Source: Candidatus Kuenenia stuttgartensis (lineage in GTDB: Bacteria > Planctomycetota > Brocadiia > Brocadiales > Brocadiaceae). From it: a stretch of 32,000 bases of DNA. The stretch's first letter is position 1, and the number at the start of each line of letters is the position of its first letter. Shown here piece after piece: positions 4,410 to 28,023 of the stretch. The stretch covers positions 3,660,001-3,692,000 of the forward strand of contig NZ_LT934425.1 in assembly GCF_900232105.1 (NCBI RefSeq). Direction: 5' to 3'. The notes beneath the pieces are model-generated. The model saw nothing but the letters and a program-made list of their open reading frames with translations. It was not told where the DNA came from and ran no database searches. The translations under genes were made by a program, and so were the position numbers.

Positions 4410-4460
4410 TGAAGGCACAAATTAATCGATTATTGGGAGGAGGGGAGGTTTTCATATCGT

Positions 4461-5657: not shown

Positions 5658-5701
5658 TGCCACTCCTACAAATGCACGGTATAGCTAAAAGTATCTATTC
5701 T

Positions 5702-5853: not shown

Positions 5854-5965
5854 TATATTTTCAGACAATTTAATATAGCATTTTAATATCGACCCGCCTG
5901 TGCGTTGCATCTCTCTGCGTGCGATTACGCACAGAATGATAACCATAAATAGAAGGGAGACGTCT

Positions 5966-7465: not shown

Positions 7466-7510
7466 GCGACAAATCCGGCATGCTGAATGTTCATAACCGT
7501 AACGGCATTT

Positions 7511-7585
7511 GATGTACGATTTACGATGTACGAAGTACGATTTAAAAATCGTAAATCGTAAATAGTAAATCTAAAATCGTACATC
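7511..7585. repeat. Heptamer-built imperfect hairpin downstream of the cytochrome gene (gatgtac gatttac gatgtac gaagtac ... aaatcgt aaatcgt aaatagt aaatcta aaatcgt acatc)
   Basis: The left-arm units are reverse complements of the right-arm units. It lies ~45 nt after the stop codon and could act as a terminator or stabiliser. It is duplicated at 8567-8633 with exactly one 7-nt unit fewer. Confidence 0.75.
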
Positions 7586-7788: not shown

Positions 7789-7989
7789 ATGAATATTGAA
7801 TTAGAACGGGAGGAAGATGGTCGCTGGATAGCTGAAATTAAGCAATTGCCCGGAGTTGTGGTTTATGGAAGTAACCGGGAAGATGCTATTTCTAAAGTGG
7901 AAGTTTTGGCGCTTCGCGTGATGGCTGATCGGGTTGAACACGGCGATCAAATCCCCGAACTTGACGCACTTTTTGTGGCACCTGTATGA
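7789..7989 (+). CDS. hicB: HicB-like (UPF0150) antitoxin
   Basis: 66 aa. EEDGRWIAEIKQLPGVVVYGSNREDAISKVEVLAL is typical of the HicB N-domain. A GGAGG RBS is present, and an ATGA overlap couples it to the next ORF. Confidence 0.7.
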   Translation: MNIELEREEDGRWIAEIKQLPGVVVYGSNREDAISKVEVLALRVMADRVEHGDQIPELDALFVAPV

Positions 7990-8204
7990 GTCAATGGCCT
8001 TCTAAAAAAGCTCGCCTTGTCCTGAGGGCGTTAATGAGACTCGGATGGAATATTAAGCGACATGACAAAACATCTCATAGGGTTCTGGAGAGGGAAGGAT
8101 GGCCTGATTATGTTTTTGCCTTTCATGACAAAGAAGAAATTGGCCCTCGTATGCTTGCGAGAATTTCAAAGCATACAGGACTAACTCCAAACGACCTTTC
8201 ATAA
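7986..8204 (+). CDS. hicA: HicA-family mRNA interferase toxin
   Basis: 72 aa. KKARLVLRALMRLGWNIKRHDKTSHRVLER...ISKHTGLTPNDL follows the YcfA/HicA pattern. Confidence 0.7.
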   Translation: MSQWPSKKARLVLRALMRLGWNIKRHDKTSHRVLEREGWPDYVFAFHDKEEIGPRMLARISKHTGLTPNDLS

Positions 8205-8259
8205 AGCACAAATTTTGCAATTTGATATTAATTTGATGAAAAATCTATGGATAAATATA

Positions 8260-8330
8260 GGAAATATAGGGACATTTCCCTTATTGATTGATTGATCTGG
8301 GGAAAATAAGGGAAGTGTCCCTATATTTCC
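8260..8330. repeat. REP-like hairpin copy 1 (26-bp arms GGAAATATAGGGACATTTCCCTTATT / AATAAGGGAAGTGTCCCTATATTTCC)
   Basis: The arms are reverse-complementary with one mismatch. The loop contains ttgatctgg. It is the same family as 8651-8722, 9970-10045 and 19934-20001. Confidence 0.85.
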
Positions 8331-8339
8331 ATATTTCCA

Positions 8340-8519
8340 TTTGATGAGTTGATCGAATTGTTGTGGGTAAAAGAATGGTTCTTTTATGCAAATTCAATAC
8401 GGTTTGCGTCTGCCATGATAGGCGCAGACCATGCTACTTTTAAAAATGGATGGTGGCAGTTGACGAAGAATTTTCACGAAATATATGAATATTCAAAAAA
8501 ATGCGAATCCGGGCATTGA
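8340..8519 (+). pseudogene. Duplicated 3' fragment of the HAO-like cytochrome gene (last ~59 codons)
   Basis: 8337-8633 repeats 7283-7585 with a few substitutions. It encodes FDELIELLWVKEWFFYANSIRFASAMIGADHATFKNGWWQLTKNFHEIYEYSKKCESGH with no upstream ORF. Confidence 0.85.
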
Positions 8520-8650
8520 GCGACAAATCCGGCACGCCGAAATGTTCATAACCGTAATGGCATTTGATGTATGATTTACGATGTACGAAGTACGATTTAA
8601 AAATCGTAAATTGTAAATCTAAAATCGTACATTGAAAACGGAAACGTTGG

Positions 8651-8722
8651 GAGAATTATGGACATATCCCATATTTCTTGCTTGATATGGTGGGAAAATA
8701 AGGGAAGTGTCCCTGTATTTCC
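8651..8722. repeat. REP-like hairpin copy 2 (left arm degenerate)
   Basis: gagaattatggacatatcccatatttcttgcttgatatggtgggaaaataagggaagtgtccctgtatttcc aligns to copy 1. Confidence 0.7.
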
Positions 8723-8808: not shown

Positions 8809-8870
8809 GGCTAACGTTGAGCTAAGCTACCGCGTGTCTTTTTGCGGTTAGCTTAAGTGACTGGTTATGT
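8809..8870 (-). other. attC-like recombination site A (minus orientation)
   Basis: Read on the minus strand: ACATAAC-cag-tcacttaagctaaccg-caaaaag-acacgcggtagcttagc-tcaac-GTTAGCC. It is an imperfect palindrome starting 3 nt after the hicB-family stop codon. Its left box is the exact complement of the start of its own cassette (GTTATGT in site B). Confidence 0.6.
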
Positions 8871-8873
8871 GTA

Positions 8874-9203
8874 TTATTTGCTTAATTTTGCACTGGCAAG
8901 GCGGTTTATACTGACTCCTGCTTCTGCGGCTTGTATCGCAAGTTTTCTATGTTCTTCTGGTGGAACTCGCACCATAAACTTACCGCTATAAGTTCTATTA
9001 GCAATTGGCTCTGGTATTTCCTCACCGTTTCTTTTCATATCATCTATTACATCAGCAATAACTTTGCGTATGCCTCTTAATGCTCCCTCAGGAGTTTTTG
9101 CAAGCCAGCTTAAGCCTGGAAATTCTGCACATAATCCTACATATTCATTGTCGTCTGCCGACCATGTAACACGATAAGTATAATGATCATTTTTCAGTGC
9201 CAT
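8874..9203 (-). CDS. hicB: HicB-family antitoxin with C-terminal RHH-like DNA-binding tail
   Basis: YTYRVTWSADDNEYVGLCAEFPGLSWLAKTPEGALRGIRKVIADVIDDMKRNGEEIPEPIA...GKFMVRVPPEEHRKLAIQAAEAGVSINRLASAKL is a classic long HicB. Confidence 0.8.
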   Translation of the reverse strand: MALKNDHYTYRVTWSADDNEYVGLCAEFPGLSWLAKTPEGALRGIRKVIADVIDDMKRNGEEIPEPIANRTYSGKFMVRVPPEEHRKLAIQAAEAGVSINRLASAKLSK

Positions 9204-9529
9204 AATTTATCTCCAATCTCCAATCTTTCAACGGCCATAAGCACTTGTTTCACTTGATATGCTTTAGCCTTTCCTTTATTATTCTGTATATTTATCCGCG
9301 GGTTATCCAGCCATGGTGTTTTATATACTCGATGACTGCTTCCCCTTTGAAGTGCGTCTCCAAAATAATTATCACAAACTGCGCAAAGATCATTGAATCT
9401 TACATTATTAGGGCTTTGGCGCATCTGTTCTAAAATATCTTTTATCTTGCTCCATTTTAAGATAGTATCATTAATGATATCATTGTCAAGGCTAGAATGT
9501 GATTGGGCATTTATATTGTTTTGACACAT
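9194..9529 (-). CDS. hicA: HicA-like toxin (start codon uncertain)
   Basis: The C-terminal part (FNDLCAVCDNYFG...GSSHRVYKTPW...INIQNNKGKAKAYQVKQVL) resembles the HicA family. It overlaps the downstream hicB by 10 nt. The ATG at 9529 lies inside the right box of attC-like site B. Confidence 0.6.
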   Translation of the reverse strand: MCQNNINAQSHSSLDNDIINDTILKWSKIKDILEQMRQSPNNVRFNDLCAVCDNYFGDALQRGSSHRVYKTPWLDNPRINIQNNKGKAKAYQVKQVLMAVERLEIGDKLWH

Positions 9530-9585
9530 AACGCCGAACTAAGCGCCGGCTGGTTTTTGCCGTCCGCTTGAGCGACTTGTTACGC
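9526..9585 (-). other. attC-like recombination site B (minus orientation)
   Basis: Read on the minus strand: GCGTAAC-aag-tcgctcaagcggacggc-aaaaa-ccagccggcgcttag-ttcggc-GTTATGT. Its left arm is nearly identical to that of site C (aacaagNcgctNcagcggacg). Confidence 0.6.
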
Positions 9586-9594
9586 GGCTGATTG

Positions 9595-9900
9595 TCATTT
9601 GATGTTGGCAGTTATTCGCCGTTTAGATGGAATAATCTCGATCAATGATCTAAGTGCTTTGTTGACCGCTTCCGAATCAGGAAAATATTTTTTTACGTCC
9701 GGCGCCAACAGAACTGCTCCATCTTCAAGCTTAAAATACTGTACTGAGATAGTGCCATCAGCCTGATGTATCTCAACTTTATGACCCGAACGATACGCTT
9801 TGTAGTGTTTTCCCCGTACCGCTCTTTTCATACTGGGAAAATCGTATTCCGACCTCATATCTTCTTCCCTCAACGAGCCTTTAGTGGATACCTTCTTCAT
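9595..9900 (-). CDS. Small antitoxin-like protein (orphan), family uncertain
   Basis: 101 aa. MRSEYDF...RGK near the N-terminus and LLAPDVKKYFPDSEAVNKALRSLIEI at the C-terminus resemble small TA antitoxins of the BrnA/DUF4415-like kind. There is no adjacent toxin ORF. Confidence 0.35.
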   Translation of the reverse strand: MKKVSTKGSLREEDMRSEYDFPSMKRAVRGKHYKAYRSGHKVEIHQADGTISVQYFKLEDGAVLLAPDVKKYFPDSEAVNKALRSLIEIIPSKRRITANIK

Positions 9901-9969
9901 AAAATCTTCTTTCGCGTGCTGTTGCCTTTCTGCAATTGATAATACGTATTTTATCCTTTCGTTCCGTAT

Positions 9970-10045
9970 GGGGGATAGGGGGACACACTTCCCATATTTT
10001 GTTTGATCTGGTAGGAGAATAAGGGACGTGTTCCCATATTTCCCC
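9970..10045. repeat. REP-like hairpin copy 3
   Basis: gggggatagggggacacacttcccatattttgtttgatctggtaggagaataagggacgtgttcccatatttcccc has the same arms and loop motif as the other copies. Confidence 0.8.
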
Positions 10046-10337
10046 TTAATAAAGGTTAGGTTGATGTGTATGGAGAGATTCCTTCCCGTTCACTCCTCAG
10101 AATAACCAAAAAAAAGCTTGCATTCTTCTTTATTTTTGTAGTATCTTCCTTTTTAAAGCAAAAGCAATTTCCTATCATCTTGATTTCGCCAAGGGGAGAA
10201 GACAATACAGGAAGCTCTCTTCGTAACAACAAGTTCGAACATGACCATCAAATGTCCACCAGACAAGTCGGAAATGGACCGCAAGCCGAAACTCATGAAC
10301 CGTCTTCGTGAAGCCCTTTCAGCAACAGCACAGCAAC

Positions 10338-11255
10338 TATCGCTGCACAAAGAGATAACCTTTAAAGGGGTGACATTTTTATCCTTAAATACCTATTTTT
10401 AGTACAGAAAAGAGTTGTTTAAGTAATTTTTGTTATGGCACGTGCAAATAGACATTATATCCCAAATTATGTTTGGCATATTACTCATAGATGCCATAAA
10501 AAAGAATTTCTTTTGAAATTTCTGAAAGATCGTAAGCGTTGGATGTACTGGCTGTTTGAAGCTAAAAAGAGATTTGGATTAAGGATATTAAACTATACTG
10601 TCACATCAAATCATATTCATCTATTGGTTATTGACAATGGTCGTGAGGTTATTCCGAAGAGTATCCAATTGGTAGCGGGGAGAACTGCACAGGAGTATAA
10701 TCAAAGAAAAAAGCGTAAGGGTGCATTTTGGGAAGACAGATATCACGCAACGGCAATAGAAACTGACATACATTTGATAAGATGTATGATGTATATTGAT
10801 TTGAATATGGTCAGGGCTGGTGTTGTAAAGCATCCGTGTGAATGGGCAATGAGTGGATATGATGAGATACAAAACCCACCGGATAGATACGCCTTAATAG
10901 ACATAAAAGGCTTGATTGAATTATGTGGGTTATCCAACAAGGAACAACTGAGGCATGAATATAAACAATGGGTAGAAGCTGCCATTAATGATAATGGCCT
11001 CAGGAGAGAGTCCTGTTGGACAGCAAGTATCGCAGTAGGGAGTAGGCGATTTGTAGAAGATACGAAGGTTAAGTTAGGTTTAAAAGCACATGGACGCAAG
11101 GTAGAGGAGGGTAACGATAAGTTTGTACTTAAAGAACCGATTGTTCCTTACAAGGCTCATTTAAGTGCCAAAAAAGATCTTCTAAGGCATGAAAACATGT
11201 ATTGTTGGGGGGGGAAACATAGTCAACGCAACAGGTTAGCTTGGTCCGACCCGAT
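10338..11255 (+). mobile_element. Y1-transposase (IS200-like / RAYT-type) repeat unit, left copy
   Basis: The 918 bp are co-linear with 17749-18665 at an offset of 7411. By eye I saw roughly ten substitutions plus one indel in a G-run. Confidence 0.85.
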
Positions 11256-11316
11256 TTACCAACCCCAAAGAGGGAGTTCAATCTCTCATCAGAAAAGTAG
11301 GGGACATTATACGTAA
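10435..11316 (+). CDS. IS200-like/REP-associated tyrosine (HUH, Y1) transposase; C-terminus altered by read-through
   Basis: HUH motif in TSNHIHLLV and the catalytic-Tyr helix motif MMYIDLNMVRAGVV. G8 here replaces GGGGGTG in the right copy, which removes the TGA stop. The ORF therefore runs on into group II intron-derived DNA. Confidence 0.8.
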   Translation: MARANRHYIPNYVWHITHRCHKKEFLLKFLKDRKRWMYWLFEAKKRFGLRILNYTVTSNHIHLLVIDNGREVIPKSIQLVAGRTAQEYNQRKKRKGAFWEDRYHATAIETDIHLIRCMMYIDLNMVRAGVVKHPCEWAMSGYDEIQNPPDRYALIDIKGLIELCGLSNKEQLRHEYKQWVEAAINDNGLRRESCWTASIAVGSRRFVEDTKVKLGLKAHGRKVEEGNDKFVLKEPIVPYKAHLSAKKDLLRHENMYCWGGKHSQRNRLAWSDPIYQPQRGSSISHQKSRGHYT

Positions 11317-11864
11317 ACATGTGAGTGCTCCTATTGAAGCCTTGTTTGAAAAGCTCAACTCTGTTCTACGAGGTTGGGCTAATTATCACAGGCATGTTGT
11401 CTCATCGGAAGCATTCAGCCGTGTTGACACCTATATCTTTGAACAACTATGGCGTATGGTAAGAAGAAGGCATCAGAACAAGACCAAAGGCTGGCTAATA
11501 AAAAAGTACTGGTCAGCCGCAGGAAAACATGTCTTTTCAATCTTACACAAGTAAAAAGAGAAGACTCGAATTTTAAAAATAATTCGGGTAAGCTCTATAG
11601 GGATAAAAAGGCATATAAAGATTAAAGCAGAAGCAACTCCTTACCTTTCTGAATACAGTAATTATTTCTGGAGAAGGAGAAACAGTAAGGAATCACGTCT
11701 GCTTGGTGCGCTATCACATCGCCAATATCAGGCAATGATAGCATCGAGGTAAAACAGTCGGGTTGTCCCACAAGGGCAGCTTATTGAAATGCTTGAGCTG
11801 TATGATGGGAAACTATCACGTACAGTTCTTAGGAGGGAATCGGGCAGCAATGCCCGTGACCTAT
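11256..11864 (+). mobile_element. 5'-truncated group II intron (3' part of the IEP ORF, then domains V and VI)
   Basis: Domain V at 11795-11828 (GAGCTGTATGATGGGAAACTATCACGTACAGTTC) is a 34-nt match to the GAGCCGTAT...GAAA...ACGTACGGTTC consensus, with the AGC triad and a GAAA loop. It is followed by a GNRA-capped hairpin (cgggca-gcaa-tgcccg) with a possible bulged A. The putative 3' end ...ctat is near 11864. Confidence 0.75.
11258..11752 (+). pseudogene. Group II intron reverse transcriptase/maturase, C-terminal remnant with an in-frame stop
   Basis: The frame reads ...TNPKEGVQSLIRKVGDIIRKHVSAPIEALFEKLNSVLRGWANYHRHVVSSEAF...LIKKYWSAAGKHVFSILHK*KEKTRILKIIRVSSIGIKRHIKIKAEATPYLSEYSNYFWRRR... 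The RGWANYH and RH-KIK---PY motifs are typical of the maturase/C-terminal region. A TAA at 11552-11554 interrupts the frame. Confidence 0.75.
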
Positions 11865-11923
11865 CCGGTGCGGCCAATTAAATTACGGCATAAATCAAAT
11901 CCAATAATCATAAGGATAAGAAT

Positions 11924-14017
11924 ATGAAGGCAAGCGAAACAAAGGTAGAAGACTTTTTATCATCAAACAAGACACAATTCATAATCCCTGTTTATCAAAG
12001 GAATTATGACTGGTCTATCAGTCAATGCAAACTGCTACTCGATGACATTCTCGAAGTTGGTACAAACAAGAAGATGAACGCCCATTTTATCGGCAGTATC
12101 GTTTATGTTCACGATGACGTATACACGGCATCAAGAATCAAGGAACTTACCGTCATTGATGGTCAGCAACGAGTTACAACCTTGACCCTGATTTATTTGG
12201 TATTACATCGTCTTGCACAGGAACTCAAAGAAGAAAAGCTTGTTAATGAAATCAGTGAAACGTATTTAATAAACAAGTTTGCTCCTGAAGAAGAAAAGCT
12301 GAAACTCCGGCCAACAGACAATAACGATAAAGCACTGAAATACCTTTTGCGCGGCGATGCAAATGAAGAATACTCTGATTTTTCAAAACTCATTGATAAC
12401 TTCAATTATTTCAAAGGCAGAATTACAGAAGATAACTATCAGATAGTATTGACTGGTTTATCAAAATTAATGTTCGTCGAAATTTCGCTTGACCGAGAAA
12501 GAGACGAGCCGCAGCGAATATTTGAGAGCCTTAATTCAACTGGCCTGGAACTTTCACAAGCTGACCTGATTCGCAACTATATTTTGATGGGTCTCAAACG
12601 AAGAGAGCAGAATAAGATTTATCAGAATTATTGGGAAGTAATTGAAAAACTTGCCAAGGATGAAATTCTTAATGTCAGCCGCGTTTCTGATTTCATCCGC
12701 GATTATTTAACAGTCGAAAATAATAATATTCCGAACAAAGGCAGAGTATATTTTGAATTCAAATCAAAGTATCCTACATCTACCCTTGAAGAATTGGAAT
12801 CAAACTTATCAGGAATTAAATCATTAGGAAAGCACTATAACAAGCTGATTAATCCGAAAAATGAACCGGATAAAGAAATAAGATTGCAACTCGAATATAT
12901 TAACCGCCTTGAAATTAATGTTGCCTATCCCTTTTTGATGAAGGTATATGATGATTACAGCAACTCCATAATTGACAAAGCAACATTCTTAAAGGTTTTA
13001 GATACAATCCAATCATTCACTTGGCGTCGTTTTATTGTTGGTCTCCCAACAAATGCTTTGAATAAAATATTTATGAATCTTTACGACAAGGTTGAGCGAG
13101 AGAATTATTTATATTCAATTCAAAAAGCTTTATTACAGCGGGCAGGAGTTCAAAGATATCCTAAAAATGAAGAGACCATAGATGCATTAAAAGTAAAAGA
13201 TGTTTACAACATAAAGGCTAAGAACAGAATATATTTACTTGAGCGGCTTGAAAATTATGACAACCGTGAACACGTCGCAATTGATGGAAATCCAGATATT
13301 ACAATTGAACATATCTTTCCGCAGAATCCTGATACCAAATGGAAAATTGAATTAGGTAATGATGAATATTCTTTCATTAAGGAAAATTATTTAAATACAA
13401 TCGGCAACCTTACCCTTTCCGGCAACAATGGAAAACTTGGCAATAAGCCATTCCTCGAAAAAAGAGATAAAGAAAACGATGGTTACAAAGATAGCAGGCT
13501 GTGGCTAAACAAATATCTGTCAGTCGCAGAGAAGTGGGACAGGGCGGAAATTGAAAGACGTTTTGGCATAATTGCAGAGAGATTCTTGAAAATATGGGAG
13601 CTTCCAACCATAGCTTTTGCTGAGGATAATGGCAATAATGAAGTTAATATATTTGAGGCAGAGGACCCAAAATTCAAGAAATTGGAGTATGCCATATTTC
13701 TGGATCAAAAACTTGAAATCAGGGCGGTGTCTCAGCTTTACGTTGAAGTATTCAAACAACTCTTTGAATTACAACCTGAAACATTCTTTACATCAGACAT
13801 AGGGCTGCGCATCGGCTTAACTAAAAATCCAGTCGAAGGAAGCCCCAGACAACCAATTGCCATTAACGACACGTATTTTATTGAAAGCAACTTAGACAAT
13901 ATAGGTAAGTTTGACAGGATTAAGCAGGCACTGACCTTGCTCAATCTTGAGGATGAATTAACAATTAAATATGCAAATGAAAACGCCGAACAAAAAAATC
14001 AACCCGACGCAGAATAG
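11924..14017 (+). CDS. DUF262 + DUF1524 (GmrSD/BrxU/SspE-like) nuclease-NTPase, putative type IV restriction/defence enzyme with ~170-aa C-terminal extension
   Basis: N-terminal motifs are IPVYQRNYDWSISQCKLLLDDI and VIDGQQRVTTL (DUF262 DGQQR). DUF1524 His-Me-like motifs are ITIEHIFPQNP and NTIGNLTLSGNNGKLGNKPF. Confidence 0.8.
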   Translation: MKASETKVEDFLSSNKTQFIIPVYQRNYDWSISQCKLLLDDILEVGTNKKMNAHFIGSIVYVHDDVYTASRIKELTVIDGQQRVTTLTLIYLVLHRLAQELKEEKLVNEISETYLINKFAPEEEKLKLRPTDNNDKALKYLLRGDANEEYSDFSKLIDNFNYFKGRITEDNYQIVLTGLSKLMFVEISLDRERDEPQRIFESLNSTGLELSQADLIRNYILMGLKRREQNKIYQNYWEVIEKLAKDEILNVSRVSDFIRDYLTVENNNIPNKGRVYFEFKSKYPTSTLEELESNLSGIKSLGKHYNKLINPKNEPDKEIRLQLEYINRLEINVAYPFLMKVYDDYSNSIIDKATFLKVLDTIQSFTWRRFIVGLPTNALNKIFMNLYDKVERENYLYSIQKALLQRAGVQRYPKNEETIDALKVKDVYNIKAKNRIYLLERLENYDNREHVAIDGNPDITIEHIFPQNPDTKWKIELGNDEYSFIKENYLNTIGNLTLSGNNGKLGNKPFLEKRDKENDGYKDSRLWLNKYLSVAEKWDRAEIERRFGIIAERFLKIWELPTIAFAEDNGNNEVNIFEAEDPKFKKLEYAIFLDQKLEIRAVSQLYVEVFKQLFELQPETFFTSDIGLRIGLTKNPVEGSPRQPIAINDTYFIESNLDNIGKFDRIKQALTLLNLEDELTIKYANENAEQKNQPDAE

Positions 14018-14072
14018 CGTCGGCGGTTTTTCCCGAAGTGGTTGCCTGCGCGGGTTATTTAAGTCGTTCTGC
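13985..14072 (+). other. attC-like recombination site F
   Basis: GCCGAAC-aaaaaaatc-AACCCGaCGCAG...CCTGCGCGGGTT-atttaagtc-GTTCTGC. The inner boxes pair over 11 bp with one bulged A. The right box is the exact complement of site C's left box. It overlaps the stop codon of the DUF262/DUF1524 gene. The internal hairpin ccgacgc-agaata-gcgtcgg followed by a T-run could double as a terminator. Confidence 0.6.
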
Positions 14073-14084
14073 TGATAAATAAAA

Positions 14085-14621
14085 ATGTCTCCATACACTA
14101 CATTTGATGATATCCGTTCGATTAATGAAAAAATTGATCGAAACGTAATTATTAAAGAAGCTTATAGCCGTCAGTATCCTAGTGTGTTTCTTTCACATTC
14201 TTCCGCTGATCATGAATCTTTGCCTGCTGTAATAAAAATACTCGAGAACCATGGTGGAAGAGTCTATATAGATGATGGTGATCCCAGGTTATCAGGAAAG
14301 GTAAACCCTAATACAGCCGAAGTCCTGCGTGAAACAATTGGTAAGTGTAGCAAATTGGTCGTATTAGTAACAACAAACACGAAAGACAGCCGCTGGGTGC
14401 CTTGGGAATTGGGTCTTGGAGATGGGAAAAAATTTCAAAGTAGCATAGCCATTTTCCCAGTCGTAAAGGATTCGTTGACAGAAAGCTGGCATGAGCAGGA
14501 ATATCTTGGATTATATAAAAGAATAGTGTGGTCAAAATTTAAAGGTAAAGATAAGAGTGAATGGATGGTTTGGGACCATAACGATAACACAGCCACTGGC
14601 TTGGGAGAATGGCTCCGTTAG
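14085..14621 (+). CDS. TIR-domain protein 1
   Basis: SVFLSHSSADHE (betaA-like), RVYIDD and KLVVLVTTNTKDSRWVPWELGLG (a W..E glutamate motif as in bacterial TIR NADases). 178 aa. Confidence 0.7.
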   Translation: MSPYTTFDDIRSINEKIDRNVIIKEAYSRQYPSVFLSHSSADHESLPAVIKILENHGGRVYIDDGDPRLSGKVNPNTAEVLRETIGKCSKLVVLVTTNTKDSRWVPWELGLGDGKKFQSSIAIFPVVKDSLTESWHEQEYLGLYKRIVWSKFKGKDKSEWMVWDHNDNTATGLGEWLR

Positions 14622-14636
14622 GGAAAGGTTCGCTAA

Positions 14637-15215
14637 ATGCAAAATTACGGCATATTATCTGGTCTACGCATCCCACCTAAGCATAAGGTTTTTATAAGTT
14701 ATCACCATGCCAATGATCAATGGGATAGGGATCGATTCGAAAATTTATTTAGTAATTATTATAGCGTTTTTATTTCAAAATCTGTCCAAATAGGTGAAAT
14801 TAGCGCATTCCTAAAAACAGATACCATTCGACAAAAAATCCGGGATGAATACCTCAGAGACAGCACGGTTACAGTAGTACTCATTGGTAAAGAAACATGG
14901 AAAAGAAAGAATGTTGACTGGGAAATTGGTGCGAGTCTAAGGCACACAATTTTAAATTCAAGATCTGGATTACTGGGAATTTTTTTGCCAGATCATCCTG
15001 ATTTTGGTCGGGATAAATATATACCTTACATAACCCCTCCTCGCCTTCATTATTGCGCCAAATGCGGTTATGCTACACTTCATGATTGGTCTGATGACCC
15101 AGCGATAGTTTCACAATGGATAGAAGGAGCGTTTAACCGCCGTTTTAAGGTTGATCCAGATAATTCATTTCCCTCTTTCATTAATAACAAATCGGGAGAA
15201 AGGTGGTCAGAATGA
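14637..15215 (+). CDS. TIR-like protein 2 (DUF1863/ThsB-like flavour)
   Basis: KVFISYHHANDQWDRDRF and STVTVVLIGKETWKRKNVDWEIGASL match the pattern I associate with ThsB-type TIR-like domains. Confidence 0.65.
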   Translation: MQNYGILSGLRIPPKHKVFISYHHANDQWDRDRFENLFSNYYSVFISKSVQIGEISAFLKTDTIRQKIRDEYLRDSTVTVVLIGKETWKRKNVDWEIGASLRHTILNSRSGLLGIFLPDHPDFGRDKYIPYITPPRLHYCAKCGYATLHDWSDDPAIVSQWIEGAFNRRFKVDPDNSFPSFINNKSGERWSE

Positions 15216-15685
15216 AATGGAAAGAATGGCTTGAAAATTGGAGTATGACAACCCTTAAAATAAATCCACCTTTTCTGGAAATGGAGTGGAAGCCTAAAGA
15301 TGAGGACAAAGATGCAGCTTGGGAGCTATATATTGAGCTTCTAACACGCATTACCACACAACCACTCCCCAAAGAACATGGCGATGAATCTACAGCACTT
15401 GATTCTATTCATTCCATATTCAACCTTACCAGAGAAGTTATCAAAAGGCGTGGTCGTCTCTGTATTGAATTTACTAAAATTGCGATTGTGATTCTTAACC
15501 AAAAAATTAGACCATTCACTGCAAAATGGCACAAACTGATGATAGACAAAGCTTTTGAGAATCCTACGAAATGCGCGGAGTTTAGGAAAGAACTAGAGGA
15601 GCTTCAAAAAATTTTACTAATATACACGAAAATGCTTGCAGATATGTCAGGGGTAGAGGATTTGACAGAACTTGAGAAACAATAA
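15212..15685 (+). CDS. Hypothetical all-alpha protein, unknown family, translationally coupled to TIR-like protein 2
   Basis: An ATGA start/stop overlap at 15212-15215. I prefer this ATG to the GTG at 15203. I see no TM segment and no recognisable catalytic motif. The sequence is helical-looking (AAWELYIELLTRITTQPL..., KCAEFRKELEELQKILLIYTKMLADM). Confidence 0.55.
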   Translation: MKWKEWLENWSMTTLKINPPFLEMEWKPKDEDKDAAWELYIELLTRITTQPLPKEHGDESTALDSIHSIFNLTREVIKRRGRLCIEFTKIAIVILNQKIRPFTAKWHKLMIDKAFENPTKCAEFRKELEELQKILLIYTKMLADMSGVEDLTELEKQ

Positions 15686-15697
15686 ATAAAACCCAAA

Positions 15698-16132
15698 ATG
15701 TCCAGTAATCAAAATAATTCAAGGTTTGTTTTTATTAGTCACAGTAGCCTCGATACTTGGATAGCGAAACAGATAGCTAAGGAGGTCGAACTATGTGGTG
15801 CAATTCCATTCTTAGATGAAGCAAATGTGAATATTGGAGACGAGTTTGAAGATAAAATATTGGAATTTTTGGATAAATCGCACTATTTGATAGTTTTATT
15901 TACCCCTTGGGCCTTAGAACGACCTTATGTATGGGCAGAGATAGGTGCTGCATGGAGCAATCGAATCCCAATAATAGTTGTTTTACATGGTATCACTTCA
16001 TCTGAACTTCAAAAACGCCCTGGAATCCCTGTATTTATTAAAAAACGAGACATAATTGAACTGAACGAAATCGATAAATTCTTTTTGCAATTAAAAAACA
16101 AAATACAAGAGTTTCAATCTGGTGTGCAATGA
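15698..16132 (+). CDS. TIR-domain protein 3
   Basis: RFVFISHSSLDTWIAKQIAKEV, AIPFLDE and YLIVLFTPWALERPYVWAEIGAAW. 144 aa. Confidence 0.7.
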   Translation: MSSNQNNSRFVFISHSSLDTWIAKQIAKEVELCGAIPFLDEANVNIGDEFEDKILEFLDKSHYLIVLFTPWALERPYVWAEIGAAWSNRIPIIVVLHGITSSELQKRPGIPVFIKKRDIIELNEIDKFFLQLKNKIQEFQSGVQ

Positions 16133-16545
16133 ATAAAAAAGTATTTATATCCTATTCAAGGGAAGATACCTCCGAAATAAGAGCTTTAGTTGACAATTTG
16201 AGTCAAATTAACCTTGATATTTGGTCAGATCAAAATATTTCTGCAGGTGATAACTGGGCTAACTTAATTGAAGAGAATCTTAGAAAAAGTGAAATTGTAC
16301 TTTTGTTCATATCTCCACGAGCACTGGCAAGTGAGTGGGTGATGATGGAGTTTGGTGCTGCTGTCGCTTTAAAGAAAAAAATCATTCCTGTGGTTCTTAA
16401 AGATACTCATATTCCCTCCTTCTTGTCAGAGCATAAATATATCAGGGCGAATAGTATTAATGAAGCTGCTGAAAAAATCAAAGAAACATTATGCAAAATA
16501 GCAGAACAAGACGCTTCAGCGGACGAGAAAAAGTCGCGCCGCTGA
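16129..16545 (+). CDS. TIR-domain protein 4
   Basis: KKVFISYSREDTSEIRALV, IWSDQNISAGDNW and IVLLFISPRALASEWVMMEFGAAVALKKKIIPVVL. An ATGA overlap links it to the preceding gene. Confidence 0.75.
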   Translation: MNKKVFISYSREDTSEIRALVDNLSQINLDIWSDQNISAGDNWANLIEENLRKSEIVLLFISPRALASEWVMMEFGAAVALKKKIIPVVLKDTHIPSFLSEHKYIRANSINEAAEKIKETLCKIAEQDASADEKKSRR

Positions 16546-16559
16546 GCTTTTTGTTAGGT
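16501..16559 (+). other. attC-like recombination site C
   Basis: GCAGAAC-aag-acgcttcagcggacg-agaaaaa-gtcgcgccgctgagc-ttttt-GTTAGGT. The arms pair with single-base bulges. It overlaps the last codons of TIR protein 4. Confidence 0.65.
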
Positions 16560-16572
16560 ATATATAGTAAAC

Positions 16573-17529
16573 ATGGATAAATCAATTAGAAAAAATGAGA
16601 TATGCGTTGTTGGATTACCACGCTGTGACTTCGTGTTTTCTTCAACTCGTAGTTGTTTCATAGCGTATGGCTTTGATACTAGTACACTGGAAATGAATAT
16701 CCTAAAAAGCCTACTAGAAGAGCGCGGCCTCATTGCTGAAGAAGCAGGTGGTACACTTGCTCCTGGTCAAAGTGCATTTTGCGCAAAAATTTGCTCGAAA
16801 ATTATTACATCTCAATTCTGTGTAGTTTTATTAAATCATGACTTAAGAAATGGCGTTGAGACTCCAAATGCAAACGTAAATATGGAATATGGGCTAATGC
16901 TAGGATTTAATAAATATGTAATCCCTTTTCAACGTGAGGGCCAGCATCTTCCCTTTAATGTCGCTGGCCTAGATACCGTAAAATACACAAATCAAAACTT
17001 TCGAGATAAAGCGATTATTGCATTAGAACAGGCAATCTCTGAAACGACACAGGAGTCAGTGCCACGGGACAATTCTGATCAAATAATCCAATTGTTTTTA
17101 ATGGAGAGAGGATTACTAGTTTCTGCGATAGATAGCGAAGGCGATAGAAACTTGTATCGCTTGGGTGATTCACTTGGATTTAACCTGCTCAATACATTCT
17201 CAGGTAACGAGTACGTATACTTTGGCAGATTTACTTCTCTTAGGCCAGAATCTGTCGTATGGCGATTAAGAAAACTTAATTCAGTAGTATCAGGCCGACG
17301 CAGCTCACTTCCTGGTAGAGTCGCGCAGGGTCTTATTACACAAGAACTACTACCTTTTGTAGATCGATTGTTCGAGACAATGAGTATTATGGTCATAGTA
17401 ACAAGTGATGCTGATAAAACAGTAATTACTGAACAACTACAAAGACAACCACTTGATTACTCTGTGGAGCTACTTACCGTCACGGAAATATTTAATGAGG
17501 TTAAAAGTGCAATACCAACTAATGCCTAA
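16573..17529 (+). CDS. Two-domain protein: N-terminal TIR / nucleoside 2-deoxyribosyltransferase / SLOG-like Rossmannoid domain plus C-terminal domain of unknown family
   Basis: CFIAYGFD (first strand), FCVVLLNHD and NANVNMEYGLMLGFNKYVIPF (an acidic residue-Gly...Lys-x-V-I motif as in NDT/TIR-like folds). I could not recognise the C-terminal ~150 aa. Confidence 0.5.
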   Translation: MDKSIRKNEICVVGLPRCDFVFSSTRSCFIAYGFDTSTLEMNILKSLLEERGLIAEEAGGTLAPGQSAFCAKICSKIITSQFCVVLLNHDLRNGVETPNANVNMEYGLMLGFNKYVIPFQREGQHLPFNVAGLDTVKYTNQNFRDKAIIALEQAISETTQESVPRDNSDQIIQLFLMERGLLVSAIDSEGDRNLYRLGDSLGFNLLNTFSGNEYVYFGRFTSLRPESVVWRLRKLNSVVSGRRSSLPGRVAQGLITQELLPFVDRLFETMSIMVIVTSDADKTVITEQLQRQPLDYSVELLTVTEIFNEVKSAIPTNA

Positions 17530-17583
17530 CAAGGCACTCCAGCCGACGCTAAAAAGCAGCGCGGCTGAGTTTGATCGTTAGTA
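17524..17583 (+). other. attC-like recombination site D
   Basis: GCCTAAC-aag-gcactccagccgacgc-taaaaa-gcagcgcggctgag-tttgatc-GTTAGTA. The left arm carries two extra (bulged) bases relative to the right arm. The stop codon of the 318-aa gene lies inside the left box. Confidence 0.65.
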
Positions 17584-17618
17584 TCAGTAACTATCAATAA
17601 AGTACCAGGAGATTAAAG

Positions 17619-17813
17619 ATGTTAAATACATTGTGGGGTGTTGTCAAAAAAGAAAAAATTGAGCTTCTGGAAAAGGCAAATATCCCTGAAGGGACAAGGG
17701 TTTTGGTAACTGTGTTGGAGATGGCAACGGGGTCGGACCATGATAAGTTATCGCTGCACAAAGAGATAACCTTTAAAGGGGTGACATTTTTATCCTTAAA
17801 TACCTATTTTTAG
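17619..17813 (+). pseudogene. Chimeric/disrupted DUF104-like antitoxin gene
   Basis: The first 33 codons (MLNTLWGVVKKEKIELLEKANIPEGTRVLVTVL) are nearly identical to the gene at 19508. The ORF then diverges and runs into the Y1-transposase repeat that starts at 17749. Confidence 0.6.
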
Positions 17814-18665
17814 TACAGAAAAGAGTTGTTTAAGTAATTTTTGTTATGGCACGTGCAAATAGACATTATATCCCAAATTATGTTTGGCATATTACTCATA
17901 GATGCCATAAGAAAGAATTTCTTTTGAAATTTCTGAAAGATCGTAAGCGTTGGGTGTACTGGCTGTTTGTAGCTAAAAAGAGATTTGGATTAAGGATATT
18001 AAACTATACTGTCACATCAAATCATATTCATCTATTGGTTATTGACAATGGTCGTGAGGTTATTCCGAAGAGTATCCAATTGGTAGCGGGGAGAACTGCA
18101 CAGGAGTATAATCAAGGAAAAAAGCGTAAGGGTGCATTTTGGGAAGACAGATATCACGCAACGGCAATAGAAACTGACATACATTTGATAAGATATATGA
18201 TGTATATTGATTTGAATATGGTCAGGGCTGGTGTTGTAAAGCATCCGTGTGAATGGGCAATGAGTGGATATGATGAGATACAAAACCCACCGGATAGATA
18301 CGCCTTAATAGACATAAAAGGCTTGATTGAATTATGTGGGTTATCCAACAAGGAACAACTGAGGCATGAATATAAACAATGGGTAGAAGCTGCCATTAAT
18401 GATAATGGCCTCAGGAGAGAGTTCTGTTGGACAGCAAGTATCGCAGTAGGGAGTAGGCGATTTGTAGAAGATACGAAGGTTAAGTTATGTTTAAAAGCAC
18501 ATGGACGCAAGGTAGAGGAGGGTAACGATAAGTTTGTACTTAAAGAACCGATTGTTCCTTACAATGCTCATTTAAGTGCCAAAAAAGATCTTCTAAGGCA
18601 TGAAAATATGTATTGTTGGGGGTGAAACATAGTCAACGCAACAGGTTAGCTTGGTCCGACCCGAT
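17749..18665 (+). mobile_element. Y1-transposase (IS200-like / RAYT-type) repeat unit, right copy
   Basis: Direct repeat of 10338-11255. Confidence 0.85.
17846..18625 (+). CDS. IS200-like/REP-associated tyrosine (HUH, Y1) transposase, 259 aa
   Basis: Same protein as 10435.. with seven amino-acid differences. It ends at a TGA that is lost in the left copy. Confidence 0.8.
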   Translation: MARANRHYIPNYVWHITHRCHKKEFLLKFLKDRKRWVYWLFVAKKRFGLRILNYTVTSNHIHLLVIDNGREVIPKSIQLVAGRTAQEYNQGKKRKGAFWEDRYHATAIETDIHLIRYMMYIDLNMVRAGVVKHPCEWAMSGYDEIQNPPDRYALIDIKGLIELCGLSNKEQLRHEYKQWVEAAINDNGLRREFCWTASIAVGSRRFVEDTKVKLCLKAHGRKVEEGNDKFVLKEPIVPYNAHLSAKKDLLRHENMYCWG

Positions 18666-18787
18666 CCAACAAAGAGACATAAGCGATGGTGTTTGAAGTG
18701 TTTATCAATATAGTACTTGCCATATCAAAGGCGTGTTATATGTACAATAAATCTGTATTCCGCATATTATGCGGATCAATCTAATCA

Positions 18788-19114
18788 ATGTTAGCACTTA
18801 AAAGAAGAAAACAGATGAAACCAGAAAAAAACGATATACCTATAAAGGTCAAAATATCTGGCAGGCAATTAGAAGAACTCCAGAAATATACAGTCGATAT
18901 GTGTGAAGCATTTGGTCTGGATAGAAGAATTGAAAATTACAAAGGTACTAGACCAATATCCTTTTACAGTTGGGATTTAGATTGTATCCTAGATGTACTT
19001 TCTATGGCCCTTAATGATAAAAAAGAATATCCAGATAGAGAAGATGAAGGCTACATCAAGCTGCACGAATTATATGTTCAGTTGAAAACTGCATATAAAG
19101 AAACATACGGGTAA
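18788..19114 (+). CDS. Hypothetical protein (cassette-borne), unknown family
   Basis: 108-aa ORF with coding-like composition and no motif I recognise. An alternative start is at 18815. Confidence 0.4.
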   Translation: MLALKRRKQMKPEKNDIPIKVKISGRQLEELQKYTVDMCEAFGLDRRIENYKGTRPISFYSWDLDCILDVLSMALNDKKEYPDREDEGYIKLHELYVQLKTAYKETYG

Positions 19115-19342
19115 TTTACAGGGTGTGGCTTGTCGGCGGCACTGGGATAAAGCCAATAGAATCCAAACATTATTGGTATCAATGAAATACAACCGCCAAG
19201 CCACGGCCTTATTTTGATGGGTCGGCTTAGCTCAACATATTTTGTAAATCAAACATTAATTGCAGCAGAAAGTAAGTGCAAGAAAAGTAAAGGCAAGGCA
19301 AGGCAAGGCTCGTGGGTATAATAAACAACGCAGGTAATTCAG

Positions 19343-19472
19343 TGCTAACCAGCGCATTCAGCCGACCAGCTACCCTTTTGCGGTTTTCTAGTTTTGTGGC
19401 TTCGTTCACCATCATCATGCAGGCCAACTTATGCGCTTCTAATCTGCTGTCGGCTGATGCTGTGCGTTAGTA
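19343..19472 (+). other. attC-like recombination site E (long form, ~130 bp)
   Basis: TGCTAAC-cag-cgcattcagccgaccagc ...(~75 nt)... gctgtcggctgatgctgtgc-GTTAGTA. The arms are complementary with bulges and homologous to those of site D. Confidence 0.55.
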
Positions 19473-19507
19473 TCAGTAACTATCAATAAAGTACCAGGAG
19501 ATTAAAG

Positions 19508-19675
19508 ATGTTAAATACATTGTGGGGTGTTGTCAAAAAAGAAAAAATTGAGCTTCTGGGAAAGGCAAATATCCCTGAAGGGACAAGGGTTTTGGTAACT
19601 GTGTTGCCTGACGATACTGGATTTACAGTTCTGGTTGAAAACAAGCCAAATCTCTTTGGATGCGATTTGGAATAA
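19508..19675 (+). CDS. DUF104/AF2212-like small antitoxin (55 aa; below the ORF-track size cut-off)
   Basis: My translation: MLNTLWGVVKKEKIELLGKANIPEGTRVLVTVLPDDTGFTVLVENKPNLFGCDLE. The G-x-I-x-LL...PEGT-V-V-V pattern is typical of this antitoxin family. It lies directly upstream of a MazF-like gene. Confidence 0.6.
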   Translation: MLNTLWGVVKKEKIELLGKANIPEGTRVLVTVLPDDTGFTVLVENKPNLFGCDLE

Positions 19676-19692
19676 CTCAGAGGATGATGTGT

Positions 19693-19977
19693 ATGCAGAA
19701 TTACTCAAAGAATGATGTAGTTTTAGTCCGTTATCCCTTTGCAGATTTGTCAAGCTCAACGGTCAGACCTGCGGTTGTTATCAGTACGCCACATATCTCT
19801 GGTGACATTTTTGTTGTGCCACTGACCAGTAAAACAGCTTCTCTTTTGCCGGGTGAGTTTATACTGACAGACTGGAATAGTGCGGGGCTTAATGTGATCA
19901 CGACGGTTAAGCGTGGAATTTACACTGCAAACAGGGAATATGGGGACACTTCCCATATTTCTTGTTTGATCTGGTAG
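19693..19977 (+). CDS. PemK/MazF-family toxin; the 3' end is replaced by a REP-like hairpin, so it is probably truncated and inactive
   Basis: KNDVVLVRYPFADLSSSTVRPAVVIS...IFVVPLTSK...LLPGEFILTDWNSAGLNVITTVKRGIYT is MazF-like. From ~19934 the reading frame runs through REP copy 4. Confidence 0.6.
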   Translation: MQNYSKNDVVLVRYPFADLSSSTVRPAVVISTPHISGDIFVVPLTSKTASLLPGEFILTDWNSAGLNVITTVKRGIYTANREYGDTSHISCLIW

Positions 19978-20001
19978 GAGAATAAGGGAAGTGTTCCTAT
20001 A
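19934..20001. repeat. REP-like hairpin copy 4, interrupted by IS630 (the remaining 6 nt are at 21130-21135)
   Basis: gggaatatggggacacttcccatatttcttgtttgatctggtaggagaataagggaagtgttccta-TA. Joining it to TA-tttccc at 21128-21135 restores the ...cctatatttccc arm seen in copy 1. Confidence 0.8.
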
Positions 20002-21127
20002 TAGTCAAACAAATCAGGTTTTCGAAATTTGCTCGCCAATAATTTGAAAATTTTCAGTTAAAAGAGTAGACAATTCATCTGTATACTCGTTAATATTTTT
20101 GAAAAAACTTAAACATTTGTTTTTAAACTTCTCATAAGTATCATAATACTTGTTATACAATATTTCTTTGCGAAAGAATTTCCATAATCTTTCAATGAGA
20201 TTTAAATTGGGTGAATAGGAAGGGAGAAATTTGATCTTTATTCTCGAATTTGCAAGGTATTCTTTGACCAACTTAGAACTGTAATATTTAGCATTATCAG
20301 AGATTATGTAAATAGTACCGGCTTGAGCATACCTTGACTCTATTTCATGGAAAAGCTTTATTGTTGATTGAGCATTGATGCTTTCATCTTCCCGGATTGT
20401 TACTTCAAAGGTTTCTATGTCAATAGCACCGTTTAAATTTATTCTTTTCCTACCGGTATTAGAGGGTATTTCCTTCTTTTTGCCTTTCTCTATCCAGCAA
20501 TATGCAGACGTAGAATTGTGCTGTGGATGAACTCCATCCATAAAAAGTATCTTATCTCCGGGGGCTTTCTCTTCTTTGAGTTGTTTGTATTTTTCGATAA
20601 ATTCTTTTTGTTTTTCAGGGTTTGCTTTGCCTGGAACTATTGTAGTTTTCTTGTAAGTAAAGCCTAATCTATCGAGGGTATGTACCATTCCTTCGGGTGT
20701 ATAGATTTTATTGAATGTCTGTTTTACATATTCAACAATTTCTTTTGCCGCGCTATAGTTGTTTTTCCTGATATGATCTTTTAATTGTTCTTCTTGTTCG
20801 CAGGTGAGTTTTGGCACACAGCCAATATAATTGTCAGATAAAAGCCCGTCAAAACCTTTATCTTTGTATAGTTTTTCGTAATTCCTGATTGTTTGATCGT
20901 CTAACAAGAGCGCTTCTGCTACTTCTTCATAACTCCATCCTGAATCAAGAAGAAGTATAGCTTTGATTCGGTCGGCATGACGTCTATGAGGCTCTTTCTT
21001 ATGTGCTTTTTTAAATTCTATTCGGGTTTTTTCACTGAGAAATGGATTCATGCAGAATTTAATACTCTAGAAACAATTCAAATGCAAGAAAAAAACAGGT
21101 TCTTCTAAAAATAAATGCTTTTTACTA
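20002..21127 (-). mobile_element. IS630-family insertion sequence (~1.13 kb) with TA target duplication
   Basis: TA at 20000-20001 and at 21128-21129. The ends are TAGTCAAAC... and ...CTTTTTACTA (reverse complement TAGTAAAAAG). It has a single transposase ORF. Confidence 0.8.
20014..21051 (-). CDS. IS630-family (Tc1/mariner-like DDE) transposase
   Basis: N-terminal HTH region (ILLLDSGWSYEEVAEALLLDDQTIRNY). DDE-region blocks are LFMDGVHPQHN, IYIISDNAKYYSS and FLPSYSPNLNLIERLWKFFRKE. Confidence 0.85.
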   Translation of the reverse strand: MNPFLSEKTRIEFKKAHKKEPHRRHADRIKAILLLDSGWSYEEVAEALLLDDQTIRNYEKLYKDKGFDGLLSDNYIGCVPKLTCEQEEQLKDHIRKNNYSAAKEIVEYVKQTFNKIYTPEGMVHTLDRLGFTYKKTTIVPGKANPEKQKEFIEKYKQLKEEKAPGDKILFMDGVHPQHNSTSAYCWIEKGKKKEIPSNTGRKRINLNGAIDIETFEVTIREDESINAQSTIKLFHEIESRYAQAGTIYIISDNAKYYSSKLVKEYLANSRIKIKFLPSYSPNLNLIERLWKFFRKEILYNKYYDTYEKFKNKCLSFFKNINEYTDELSTLLTENFQIIGEQISKT

Positions 21128-21254
21128 TATTTCCCTGACTGGGTTATGCATCGTATTTCGCGTTTCGGATTTCAACATTAAATATTTTGCCAAAAAGCAC
21201 GCACTGACGAATGGAAGTGTGCAGAAAAATTACTGATAAGGTACTGCAGGGTTA

Positions 21255-26254: not shown

Positions 26255-26273
26255 CTCCAAAATAGCTATGGCT

Positions 26274-28022: not shown

Positions 28023-28023
28023 C

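Follow-up and report, generated by a model that had tools for sequence, protein, structure and literature searches.

We found that positions 8809-19933 of the window, by which we mean the whole 32,000-nt stretch of the Candidatus Kuenenia stuttgartiensis chromosome presented above (contig NZ_LT934425.1, positions 3,660,001 to 3,692,000), very probably make up the cassette part of a chromosomal integron that has degraded; its formal class is CALIN (cluster of attC sites lacking an integron integrase). The window has a G+C content of 40%, encodes multihaem cytochromes, and is 100% identical between positions 1924 and 24016 to contig OCTL01000017.1 of assembly GCA_900232175.1. Core genes fill positions 1-7465, with a cytochrome gene as the last of them, and begin again with RNase R at 21255, while the accessory region between them is made up of small open reading frames (ORFs), insertion sequences (ISs), and repeats. 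This locus between the multihaem cytochrome gene and RNase R is present in 11 NCBI assemblies, including CP049055, the complete genome of "Candidatus Kuenenia stuttgartiensis" strain CSTR1 (PMC7709395). Integrons are classed as sedentary when they occur in 100% of the genomes or carry more than 19 attC sites (Cury et al., PMC4889954); the window contains six. A preliminary description made from the sequence had already proposed integron-type cassettes here, a reading that is supported by an independent attC model, by the extrahelical bases of the sites, and by strain differences that break at their right boxes (R').

The six attC sites, with their left (R'') and right (R') boxes and their scores under the covariance model R2 described below, are as follows.

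8809-8870, minus strand: attC A; R'' ACATAAC, R' GTTAGCC; 32.8 bits, E 1.6e-6; both bulge columns filled in the alignment to model R1; last attC on its side, terminating a hicAB-like cassette
9526-9585, minus strand: attC B; R'' GCGTAAC, R' GTTATGT; 40.5 bits, E 1.3e-8; terminates a cassette with a 101-aa ORF (9595-9900)
13985-14072, plus strand: attC F; R'' GCCGAAC, R' GTTCTGC; 38.0 bits, E 6.3e-8
16501-16559, plus strand: attC C; R'' GCAGAAC, R' GTTAGGT; 37.2 bits, E 1e-7; bottom-strand fold with two bulges, z = -2.75
17524-17583, plus strand: attC D; R'' GCCTAAC, R' GTTAGTA; 54.5 bits, E 2.4e-12; fold z = -4.03, with T and G as the bulged bases of the bottom strand; the most canonical of the six
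19343-19472, plus strand: attC E; 130 nt with a long variable loop; R'' TGCTAAC, R' GTTAGTA; 23.2 bits, E 6e-4; also found at 833-962 of a related contig, L120 (see below)

Two covariance models, R1 and R2, were trained solely on attC sites of class 1 integrons from unrelated plasmids of PLSDB. These integrons were located in the plasmid collection through the IntI1 protein, and 11 cassette arrays were read, giving 15 different attCs (those of dfrA5, gcuF, aac(6')-29a, blaVIM-2, arr-3, aac(6')-Ib, aadB, aadA2, aadA5, dfrA12, estX, psp, cmlA1, aadA1, and qacL). Only the R-box and L-box pairs were specified, every long loop being trimmed in R1 and one long loop being kept in R2. Scanning both strands of the full 32 kb without filters, R2 returned precisely the six intervals at which the preliminary description had placed its palindromes, on the predicted strands, i.e., those of the adjoining ORFs (23-54 bits, E 6e-4 to 2e-12). 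The covariance-model check suggested there thus recovered all six sites and nothing else in the window: no other match in the 32 kb exceeded 11.2 bits with R2, the next best being 6368-6409 on the plus strand (E about 1). R1 calls five sites and misses the 130-nt site E, even with a search space of 300 nt; we suspect that this model is unable to span 130 nt. Weak R1 and R2 matches inside the cassette with TIR genes (14582-14623 and 16131-16191) lie near gene ends, but at 7-8 bits and E 5-10 they are at chance level and were rejected.

As a control of specificity, R2 was applied to 80 loci (942 kb) with unrelated integron integrases, where all 43 matches at E <= 0.01 were on the strand opposite to intI and upstream of it, i.e., on the side that cassettes occupy in classical integrons, and none fell elsewhere. 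The preliminary description had named palindromes behind ordinary core genes as a sign of a generic terminator family; in the window, the core genes are not followed by any site that the model recognizes, and its matches in the 80 unrelated loci are limited to the cassette side. Rfam, run over the window, reported a group II intron as its sole match.

All six sites have the boxes and lengths first ascribed to them, with an invariant AAC in R'' and GTT in R', lengths of 59-130 nt, and spacers of 5 and 5-6 nt. When the bottom strands are folded to minimum energy, two single-base bulges appear on the R'' arm in C, D, E, and F, one bulge appears in A, and B has one small asymmetric internal loop; the bulges are confined to the '' arm, in agreement with the concentration on one arm that had been noted, most clearly at D. 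Aligned to the model, A, B, C, D, and F have a base at each of the two bulge positions of the class 1 consensus, their extra bases on the bottom strand being an inner T and an outer G (B, D, and F) or outer A (A and C). For site E the extra bases were read by eye as an inner T or G and an outer A. The proposed folding of both strands hence gave the expected extrahelical bases on the bottom strands, and the asymmetry of attC, two extra bases on the R''/L'' arm, is present in all six sites (in E by eye). Work by Bouvier, MacDonald, Nivina, and colleagues reportedly established two extrahelical bases on the '' arm as the accepted polarity marks of attC. The 3' ends of ORFs lie at sites A, B, F, C, and D, from a 45-nt overlap to 9 nt past the end, as had been stated for all the sites; this does not hold for site E, whose nearest credible ORF (18788-19114) ends 228 nt before it.

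Next to the array, the window retains the beginning of an integrase gene.

10241-10319, plus strand: intI remnant, the first 26 codons (MTIKCPPDKSEMDRKPKLMNRLREAL), which then runs into a Y1-transposase element; preceded by a conserved upstream region (10031-10240)
10338-11255, plus strand: Y1-transposase element, copy 1 (IS200/IS605-like; Pfam Y1_Tnp, 1e-10), which truncates intI; its left end is damaged, and it repeats at 17749-18665

Positions 10031-10319 have 86% DNA identity to positions 5606-5304 of L120 (OCTL01000144.1), which comprise the 5' end of an intI gene and the region upstream of it. L120 is a second contig of assembly GCA_900232175.1, syntenic with the window from the cytochrome gene to RNase R, and at the position of the remnant it carries an intact IntI of 369 aa (4309-5418) whose sequence includes MTIKCPSDKSEMDHKPKLMDRLREALCSRHYSRRTEQ and whose N terminus matches window positions 10241-10319. 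This protein scores 480.7 bits on TIGR02249, "integron integrase" (cut-off, 265), and, in our by-eye reading, has the IntI-specific insertion with an ALDRKYP motif. The search for such an IntI outside the window, which the preliminary description recommended, therefore ended in OCTL01000144. The statement that the window has no intact intI was correct, for we found no ORF with an integrase domain in it and the 26 codons are all that there is of intI, but the remnant itself had been overlooked. Most other assemblies, including CSTR1, have the Y1-transposase IS in place of the integrase gene. In the window, this IS together with a deletion has cut the gene down to 26 codons, and the array would consequently be frozen unless IntI were provided in trans. 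Of the two options left open at first, a CALIN or part of a chromosomal integron, the formal label is CALIN; given the intact integrase at the same position in OCTL01000144, a chromosomal integron with a destroyed integrase is more accurate than an orphan CALIN.

The L120 contig also has a cassette boundary, GTTGGCC, 95 nt after the stop codon of intI. It is the exact complement of the attC R'' of that first cassette (GGCCAAC), and the corresponding region is deleted in the window.

Brocadiaceae and Kuenenia also have a second type of integrase, which is 325 aa long and shares 48% identity with the 369-aa type. Its gene is intact in one Brocadiaceae genome (L028, 17-994) and degraded in contig L003 (2340-3324, minus strand) and in Kuenenia sp. 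L030 (10001-10662); in L003, by our reading, it is broken by a palindrome resembling repetitive extragenic palindromic (REP) elements (2644-2767) and by a group II intron. The arrays beside this type are classical and divergent in L003 and L030, and L028 has one weak attC match. A short-query tblastn search with the ORF at 10241 against 80 loci of the 325-aa type and L003 gave nothing, the only match coming from the 369-aa IntI of L120. The group II intron that splits intI in L003 lies at 1473-2283 of that contig (minus strand).

The cassettes delimited by the attC sites are the following.

8871-9531, minus strand: body of a toxin-antitoxin cassette, from the TT of the R' box of B to attC A; HicB (8874-9203; Pfam HicB, 1.1e-14) and a 111-aa partner (9194-9529); start GTTATGT, the exact complement of the R'' of A
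9595-9900, minus strand: 101-aa ORF for a protein of unknown function, in the cassette ending in B
11924-14017, plus strand: GmrSD-type (type IV restriction-like) defence gene; Pfam GmrSD_N 1.9e-37 and GmrSD_C 3e-23; PADLOC Orf5 1.2e-143, HEC-06, and mREase_IV; cargo of the cassette ending in F
14067-16553, plus strand: five-gene TIR cassette with four TIR/ThsB-like genes (14085-14621, 14637-15215, 15698-16132, and 16129-16545) and a 160-aa unknown (15203-15685); start GTTCTGC, the exact complement of the R'' of C
16554-17577, plus strand: single-gene cassette for a 318-aa protein of unknown function (16573-17529) with only a sub-threshold CAP12-PCTIR_TIR match; start agreeing with the R'' of D at 6/7 positions
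17578-19466, plus strand: hybrid cassette ending in E; its 5' part is a copy of the start of an antitoxin-like cassette, followed by a second Y1-transposase copy (17724-18665) and a 108-aa unknown ORF (18788-19114)
19467-19933, plus strand: last cassette, with a 55-aa ORF and a PemK/MazF-like toxin (19660-19977; Pfam PemK_toxin 0.0011, weak); no attC left

In the mechanism that we envisage, a cassette would be a promoter-poor gene or small operon ending in an attC, whose bottom strand would fold into an imperfect hairpin with two extrahelical bases directing IntI to the strand to be cut; exchange would then take place between G and TT in the R' box, allowing cassettes to leave as circles and to reinsert. 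It follows from such an exchange that the first bases of a cassette should be complementary to the left box of its own attC, and from excision and reinsertion at this point that the same cassette should stand beside different neighbours in different strains.

The first expectation had been put forward as the decisive test, and its examples hold. The R'' heptamer of site C agrees with 14066-14072 at 7/7 positions, that of site A with GTTATGT at 7/7, and those of D and E with their own cassette starts at 6/7 each; over the variable positions, the cassettes of the window give 4/4, 3/4, 3/4, and 4/4. Taken over 18 cassettes (those of the window and others on related contigs), the complement of R'' matches the start of the same cassette at 53 of 72 variable positions, against 30.2 ± 3.7 of 72 for permuted pairings of R'' and starts (none of 20000 permutations reached 53) and 34 of 72 when the control pairing is with the downstream R' box of the attC itself. 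The misses are cassettes broken by an intron or an IS, or cases in which an attC has probably been overlooked. For the cassette ending in B, the heptamer GTTACGA (10227-10221, minus strand) was considered as a start and rejected: it matches at 6/7 positions, but we estimate about 0.5 such chance matches per 400 nt, and the region is common to L120, which has another cassette there.

Comparison with relatives, also advised in the preliminary description, places presence/absence breaks between the G and the TT of the R' boxes of F and B. At F, the DNA of contigs L003, L006, L007, and L009 is 99.7-99.8% identical to the window from within the upstream intron to position 14068, where identity ends. 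The junction in the window reads AAGTCGTT followed by CTGCTGATAAA and then the TIR cassette, whereas the four contigs have AAGTCGTT followed by AGACATCAATGG and then other cassettes; the break thus comes directly after the GTT of the R' box, which continues as CTGC in the window and as AGAC in L003, L006, L007, and L009. At B, the window is collinear with L120 from 2832 through the hicAB cassette, and exact identity ends between C and GTTATGT, upstream of which the window has attC B and L120 a different attC (B') truncated by a miniature inverted-repeat transposable element (MITE). The hicAB cassette accordingly follows a different attC in L120. The cassettes starting at 17577 and 19466, behind D and E, are identical at 140 of their first 141 nt from GTTAGTA, confirming a common start that had been pointed out, while the spacers directly upstream differ. 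An identical copy of the GmrSD protein is encoded on 13 public contigs. Other contexts were also looked up for the TIR cassette and the 318-aa cassette, and the arrangement of the window was the only one found.

As to the layout, F, C, D, and E form a plus-strand array located 3' of the intI remnant and co-oriented with it, and the minus-strand cassettes of A and B lie on its 5' side (8809-9900), facing away. L120 has attCs on both sides of its intact intI, the downstream part comprising co-oriented cassettes for an FMN reductase, a 335-aa protein, and a pair of 256- and 99-aa proteins, then site E and a toxin-antitoxin cassette. Window positions 18790-20002 (attC E, the toxin-antitoxin cassette, and a MITE) and 21122-21433 (the RNase R flank) are collinear with L120. 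To survey layouts, 80 metagenome loci with relatives of the 369-aa integrase were fetched. Co-oriented attCs downstream of intI were present in all 22 loci that had attC matches and an IntI at least 61% identical (42 matches), two of which had co-oriented attCs upstream as well (7 matches); the five classical layouts in the survey belonged to integrases of at most 59% identity. The intI of K. stuttgartiensis has been grouped with those of Treponema, Synechococcus, Chlorobium, and Blastopirellula, and in Treponema integrons intI is transcribed toward attI (PMC3607928); an "inverted integrase" group has likewise been described (PMC3575428). Considering the 22 relatives and this literature group, F-C-D-E is the proper array of a reverse integron. 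The reverse arrangement is seen in these four sites relative to the remnant, in L120, and in the 22 relatives; cassettes A and B, divergent and on the 5' side, are exceptions and do not fit it.

Several observations weigh against the interpretation as a chromosomal integron. Divergent cassettes on the 5' side, such as A and B, were found in none of the 22 related loci. The start of the GmrSD cassette in L003 (GTTATTT, followed by a group II intron) agrees with the complement of its attC R'' at 0/4 variable positions. Site E scores just 23 bits with R2, whose E-values are rough, and five genes in one "cassette" are unusual. Finally, the window has no intact intI and no identified attI, and hence current activity cannot be claimed; we know of no attI consensus for this integrase clade.

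The alternative that survives best concerns A and B, which may lie outside the normal array, either because they entered at a secondary GTT upstream of intI or because the integrase inverted them, leaving a small orphan cluster. We consider this possible, if rather doubtful. The orientation of the two cassettes, without parallel in the integrase clade, would be accounted for, secondary-site insertion is an accepted origin of integrase-less attC clusters (PMC4889954), and the A/B block sits between two MITE copies beside the core cytochrome gene. However, the haplotypes together show at least three different attCs on the 5' side (A, B, and, in L120, B'), suggesting repeated recombination there, and no junction sequence was identified. 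An inversion of the block mediated by the MITEs was rejected because the two flanking copies are in direct orientation. A bolder and unlikely idea is that of a two-armed integron recombining on both sides of intI, with the co-oriented array on the 3' side and a divergent entry on the 5' side, where A, B, and B' are seen across haplotypes. To our knowledge, such a layout has been described for no known integron class. Similarly speculative, and independent of it, is the suggestion that the 2.5-kb, five-gene TIR cassette is a complete, undescribed multi-TIR system that moves as one cassette.

It is less likely still that the F-C-D-E array is foreign to the local truncated integrase and was imported through ISs from a second, classical integron of the 325-aa IntI type. 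This would agree with the identical GmrSD cassette that L003 carries within a classical array beside its degraded 325-aa-type intI, with the fact that only an IS and an intron fragment separate the intI remnant from GmrSD, and with the quite different cassettes that follow the same IS in other strains. However, the distal end of the array (18790-20002) and the RNase R flank (21122-21433) align collinearly with L120, where the intact 369-aa intI is followed by a co-oriented array, and position and orientation are those of all 22 related loci. Moreover, integrases exchange cassettes freely between integrons, so that a shared cassette is no proof of the common origin of whole arrays; the GmrSD cassette shared with L003 suggests cassette exchange between the two integron types. 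We give practically no credence to the view that the palindromes belong to a generic terminator or REP-like family that follows genes and resembles attC in appearance alone: although they are G+C-rich hairpins in a 40% G+C genome, mostly stand at ORF 3' ends, and share this genome with other palindromic families (MITE and REP-like), they score 23-54 bits in a model built from class 1 sites alone, which has no match behind the window's core genes, vary in sequence from site to site as the members of a repeat family would not, carry their bulges on the same arm relative to the gene in every case, break between G and TT among strains, adjoin an integron integrase gene, and, as read from the sequences, are not followed by a T-run at any of the six stems.

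Within the degraded integron, the recognizable cargo appears to consist mostly of anti-phage defence and toxin-antitoxin genes, judging from their similarity to known families. The cassette named hicAB in the preliminary description contains a HicB that Pfam recognizes, but the 111-aa product of 9194-9529 had no Pfam match at E <= 0.01. The genes of the TIR cassette match Pfam TIR_2 and ThsB_TIR, the first of them also PADLOC ThsB (2.8e-57). They are overlapping or tightly spaced over 2.5 kb with no internal attC detected by R2, and in public contigs the cassette always follows the GmrSD cassette intact; it could be a multi-TIR defence operon. The last cassette is cut off by a MITE (19934-20002) and an IS630-like transposase gene (20014-21051, minus strand; Pfam DDE_3, 4.7e-31), with the loss of its 3' end and of any attC. 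In sister contigs, a Hachiman pair (HamA and a helicase) forms a cassette in L003, and ParE and AbiJ-like genes occur in other strains. Defence systems as integron cargo, and cassettes as their stores, have been reported (bioRxiv 10.1101/2024.07.02.601686).

The array is interrupted by further mobile elements.

11256-~11880, plus strand: 3' remnant of a group II intron (maturase C terminus and domains V-VI) in the leader of the GmrSD cassette; Rfam RF00029 at 11793-11869, 60.6 bits; GIIM domain on the ORF at 11321-11554; end approximate
17724-18665, plus strand: Y1-transposase element, copy 2, which splits a toxin-antitoxin-like cassette

The Y1 element is about 0.94 kb long and encodes a transposase of 259-293 aa, and its ends, read from contig L011, are the inverted sequences GGGTCGGACC and GGTCCGACCC. 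Most of intI has been replaced by copy 1, which directly adjoins the remaining 3' part (0.6 kb) of the group II intron. To its right, other strains have quite different cassettes (including those with ParE and AbiJ-like genes), each with its own attC; evidently, recombination between IS copies reshuffled the array. In L003, an ORF-less intron (8849-~9950) lies on the cassette strand directly after an attC R' box (GTTATTT followed by GTGACCC). The class 1 control L024 (pWLK-NDM) has its intron gene, ltrA, opposite to the cassettes.

Other repeats surround the cassettes. A MITE-like palindromic family (D4) of about 70 nt, beginning with GGGACACTTCCC and ending with GGGAAGTGTCCC, is present at 8259-8330, 8650-8722, 9971-10039, and 19934-20002; the A/B block has copies on either side, and another copy cuts off the end of the last cassette. 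Next to the cytochrome gene, a 1054-bp structure of the form A-B-A (7282-7584 and 8336-8638) contains, in two copies with 94-96% identity, the terminal 180 nt of this multihaem gene together with the sequence downstream of it. A second HicB/HicA pair (7789-8204) and a MITE are found between the two copies; contig L013 has a single copy and no insert. A REP-like palindromic repeat (from GTAGGGGCGAAGCATTTGC to GCAAATGCTTCGCCCCTAC) is located beside core genes at ~5750-5840, 28021-28100, and 30386-30479, and the palindrome in L003 at 2644-2767 is, by our reading, a copy of it. Upstream of a GGDEF/GAF gene, positions 4190-4400 contain short, imperfect repeats arranged in runs (units CTGCCGA, CTGTAGG, and CTGTAGA). 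Outside the cassette region, on the minus strand of 24917-27155, there are an IS66-family transposase gene (24917-26455) and an ORF of 293 aa (26274-27155; Pfam DruA, 3e-39).

Integrons in Planctomycetes, frequent intI pseudogenes, ISs within integrons, and integrase-less attC clusters are all documented (PMC2426708, PMC4889954), and the intI of K. stuttgartiensis is already included in published trees (PMC3607928). Comparative genomics of Kuenenia attributed the plasticity of the genome to transposases and did not mention integrons (PMC7709395). The cassette array, its variation among strains, and the IS-truncated allele appear to be undescribed in the literature that we searched. They explain differences in defence and toxin-antitoxin genes among strains of an industrially important, uncultivable anammox bacterium. 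The intact and the IS-truncated intI at one locus within one assembly are a natural before-and-after pair that documents one route to integrase-less attC clusters. The locus and its relatives also add well-resolved examples to the poorly studied group of reverse integrons and point to compact cassette-borne candidates for defence (GmrSD, the four-TIR operon, and Hachiman in a sister contig), while leaving the general understanding of integrons unchanged.

Among known systems, the sites resemble class 1 attCs (aadA, aadB, dfrA, and others) in their 7-nt R boxes, their spacers of 5 and 5-6 nt, and the two extra bases that the '' arm of their L box carries. They share a GCCGAC / GCGGCT core with them, site D being close to the attC of aadB, and this core is also present in aadA. 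Unlike class 1 integrons, the locus carries no antibiotic resistance, lies on a planctomycete chromosome, and has neither a Tn402/Tn21 context nor a 3' conserved segment. With the sedentary integrons of Vibrio (bioRxiv 10.1101/2024.07.02.601686) it has in common a chromosomal location between core genes, a content that varies among strains, and toxin-antitoxin and anti-phage cargo, the latter being GmrSD and the TIR/ThsB-like genes in the window and Hachiman and AbiJ-like genes in sister contigs. In contrast, the Vibrio integrons have a divergent intI, tens to hundreds of cassettes, and near-identical attCs, whereas here the attCs differ, the array is short, and the integrase is of the reverse type.

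Like a CALIN (Cury et al. 2016, PMC4889954), the locus combines six attCs with the absence from the window of any ORF that has an integrase domain; the 26-codon stump falls short of the 50% profile coverage required in that paper and is too short for its pseudogene criterion. Loss of intI and IS-linked rearrangement have both been proposed as origins of CALINs (PMC4889954). It differs from CALINs in general in that the cause, an IS insertion and a deletion, is visible and the same assembly also contains this locus with an intact allele. Unlike other reverse integrons, it has an IS-truncated intI, two extra divergent cassettes on the 5' side, and a short array of six attCs riddled with ISs, MITEs, and a group II intron remnant. 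Nevertheless, as in the reverse chromosomal integrons of, e.g., Treponema denticola, intI is transcribed toward the cassettes and the array is 3' of it and co-oriented, in L120, in F-C-D-E of the window, and in the 22 relatives.

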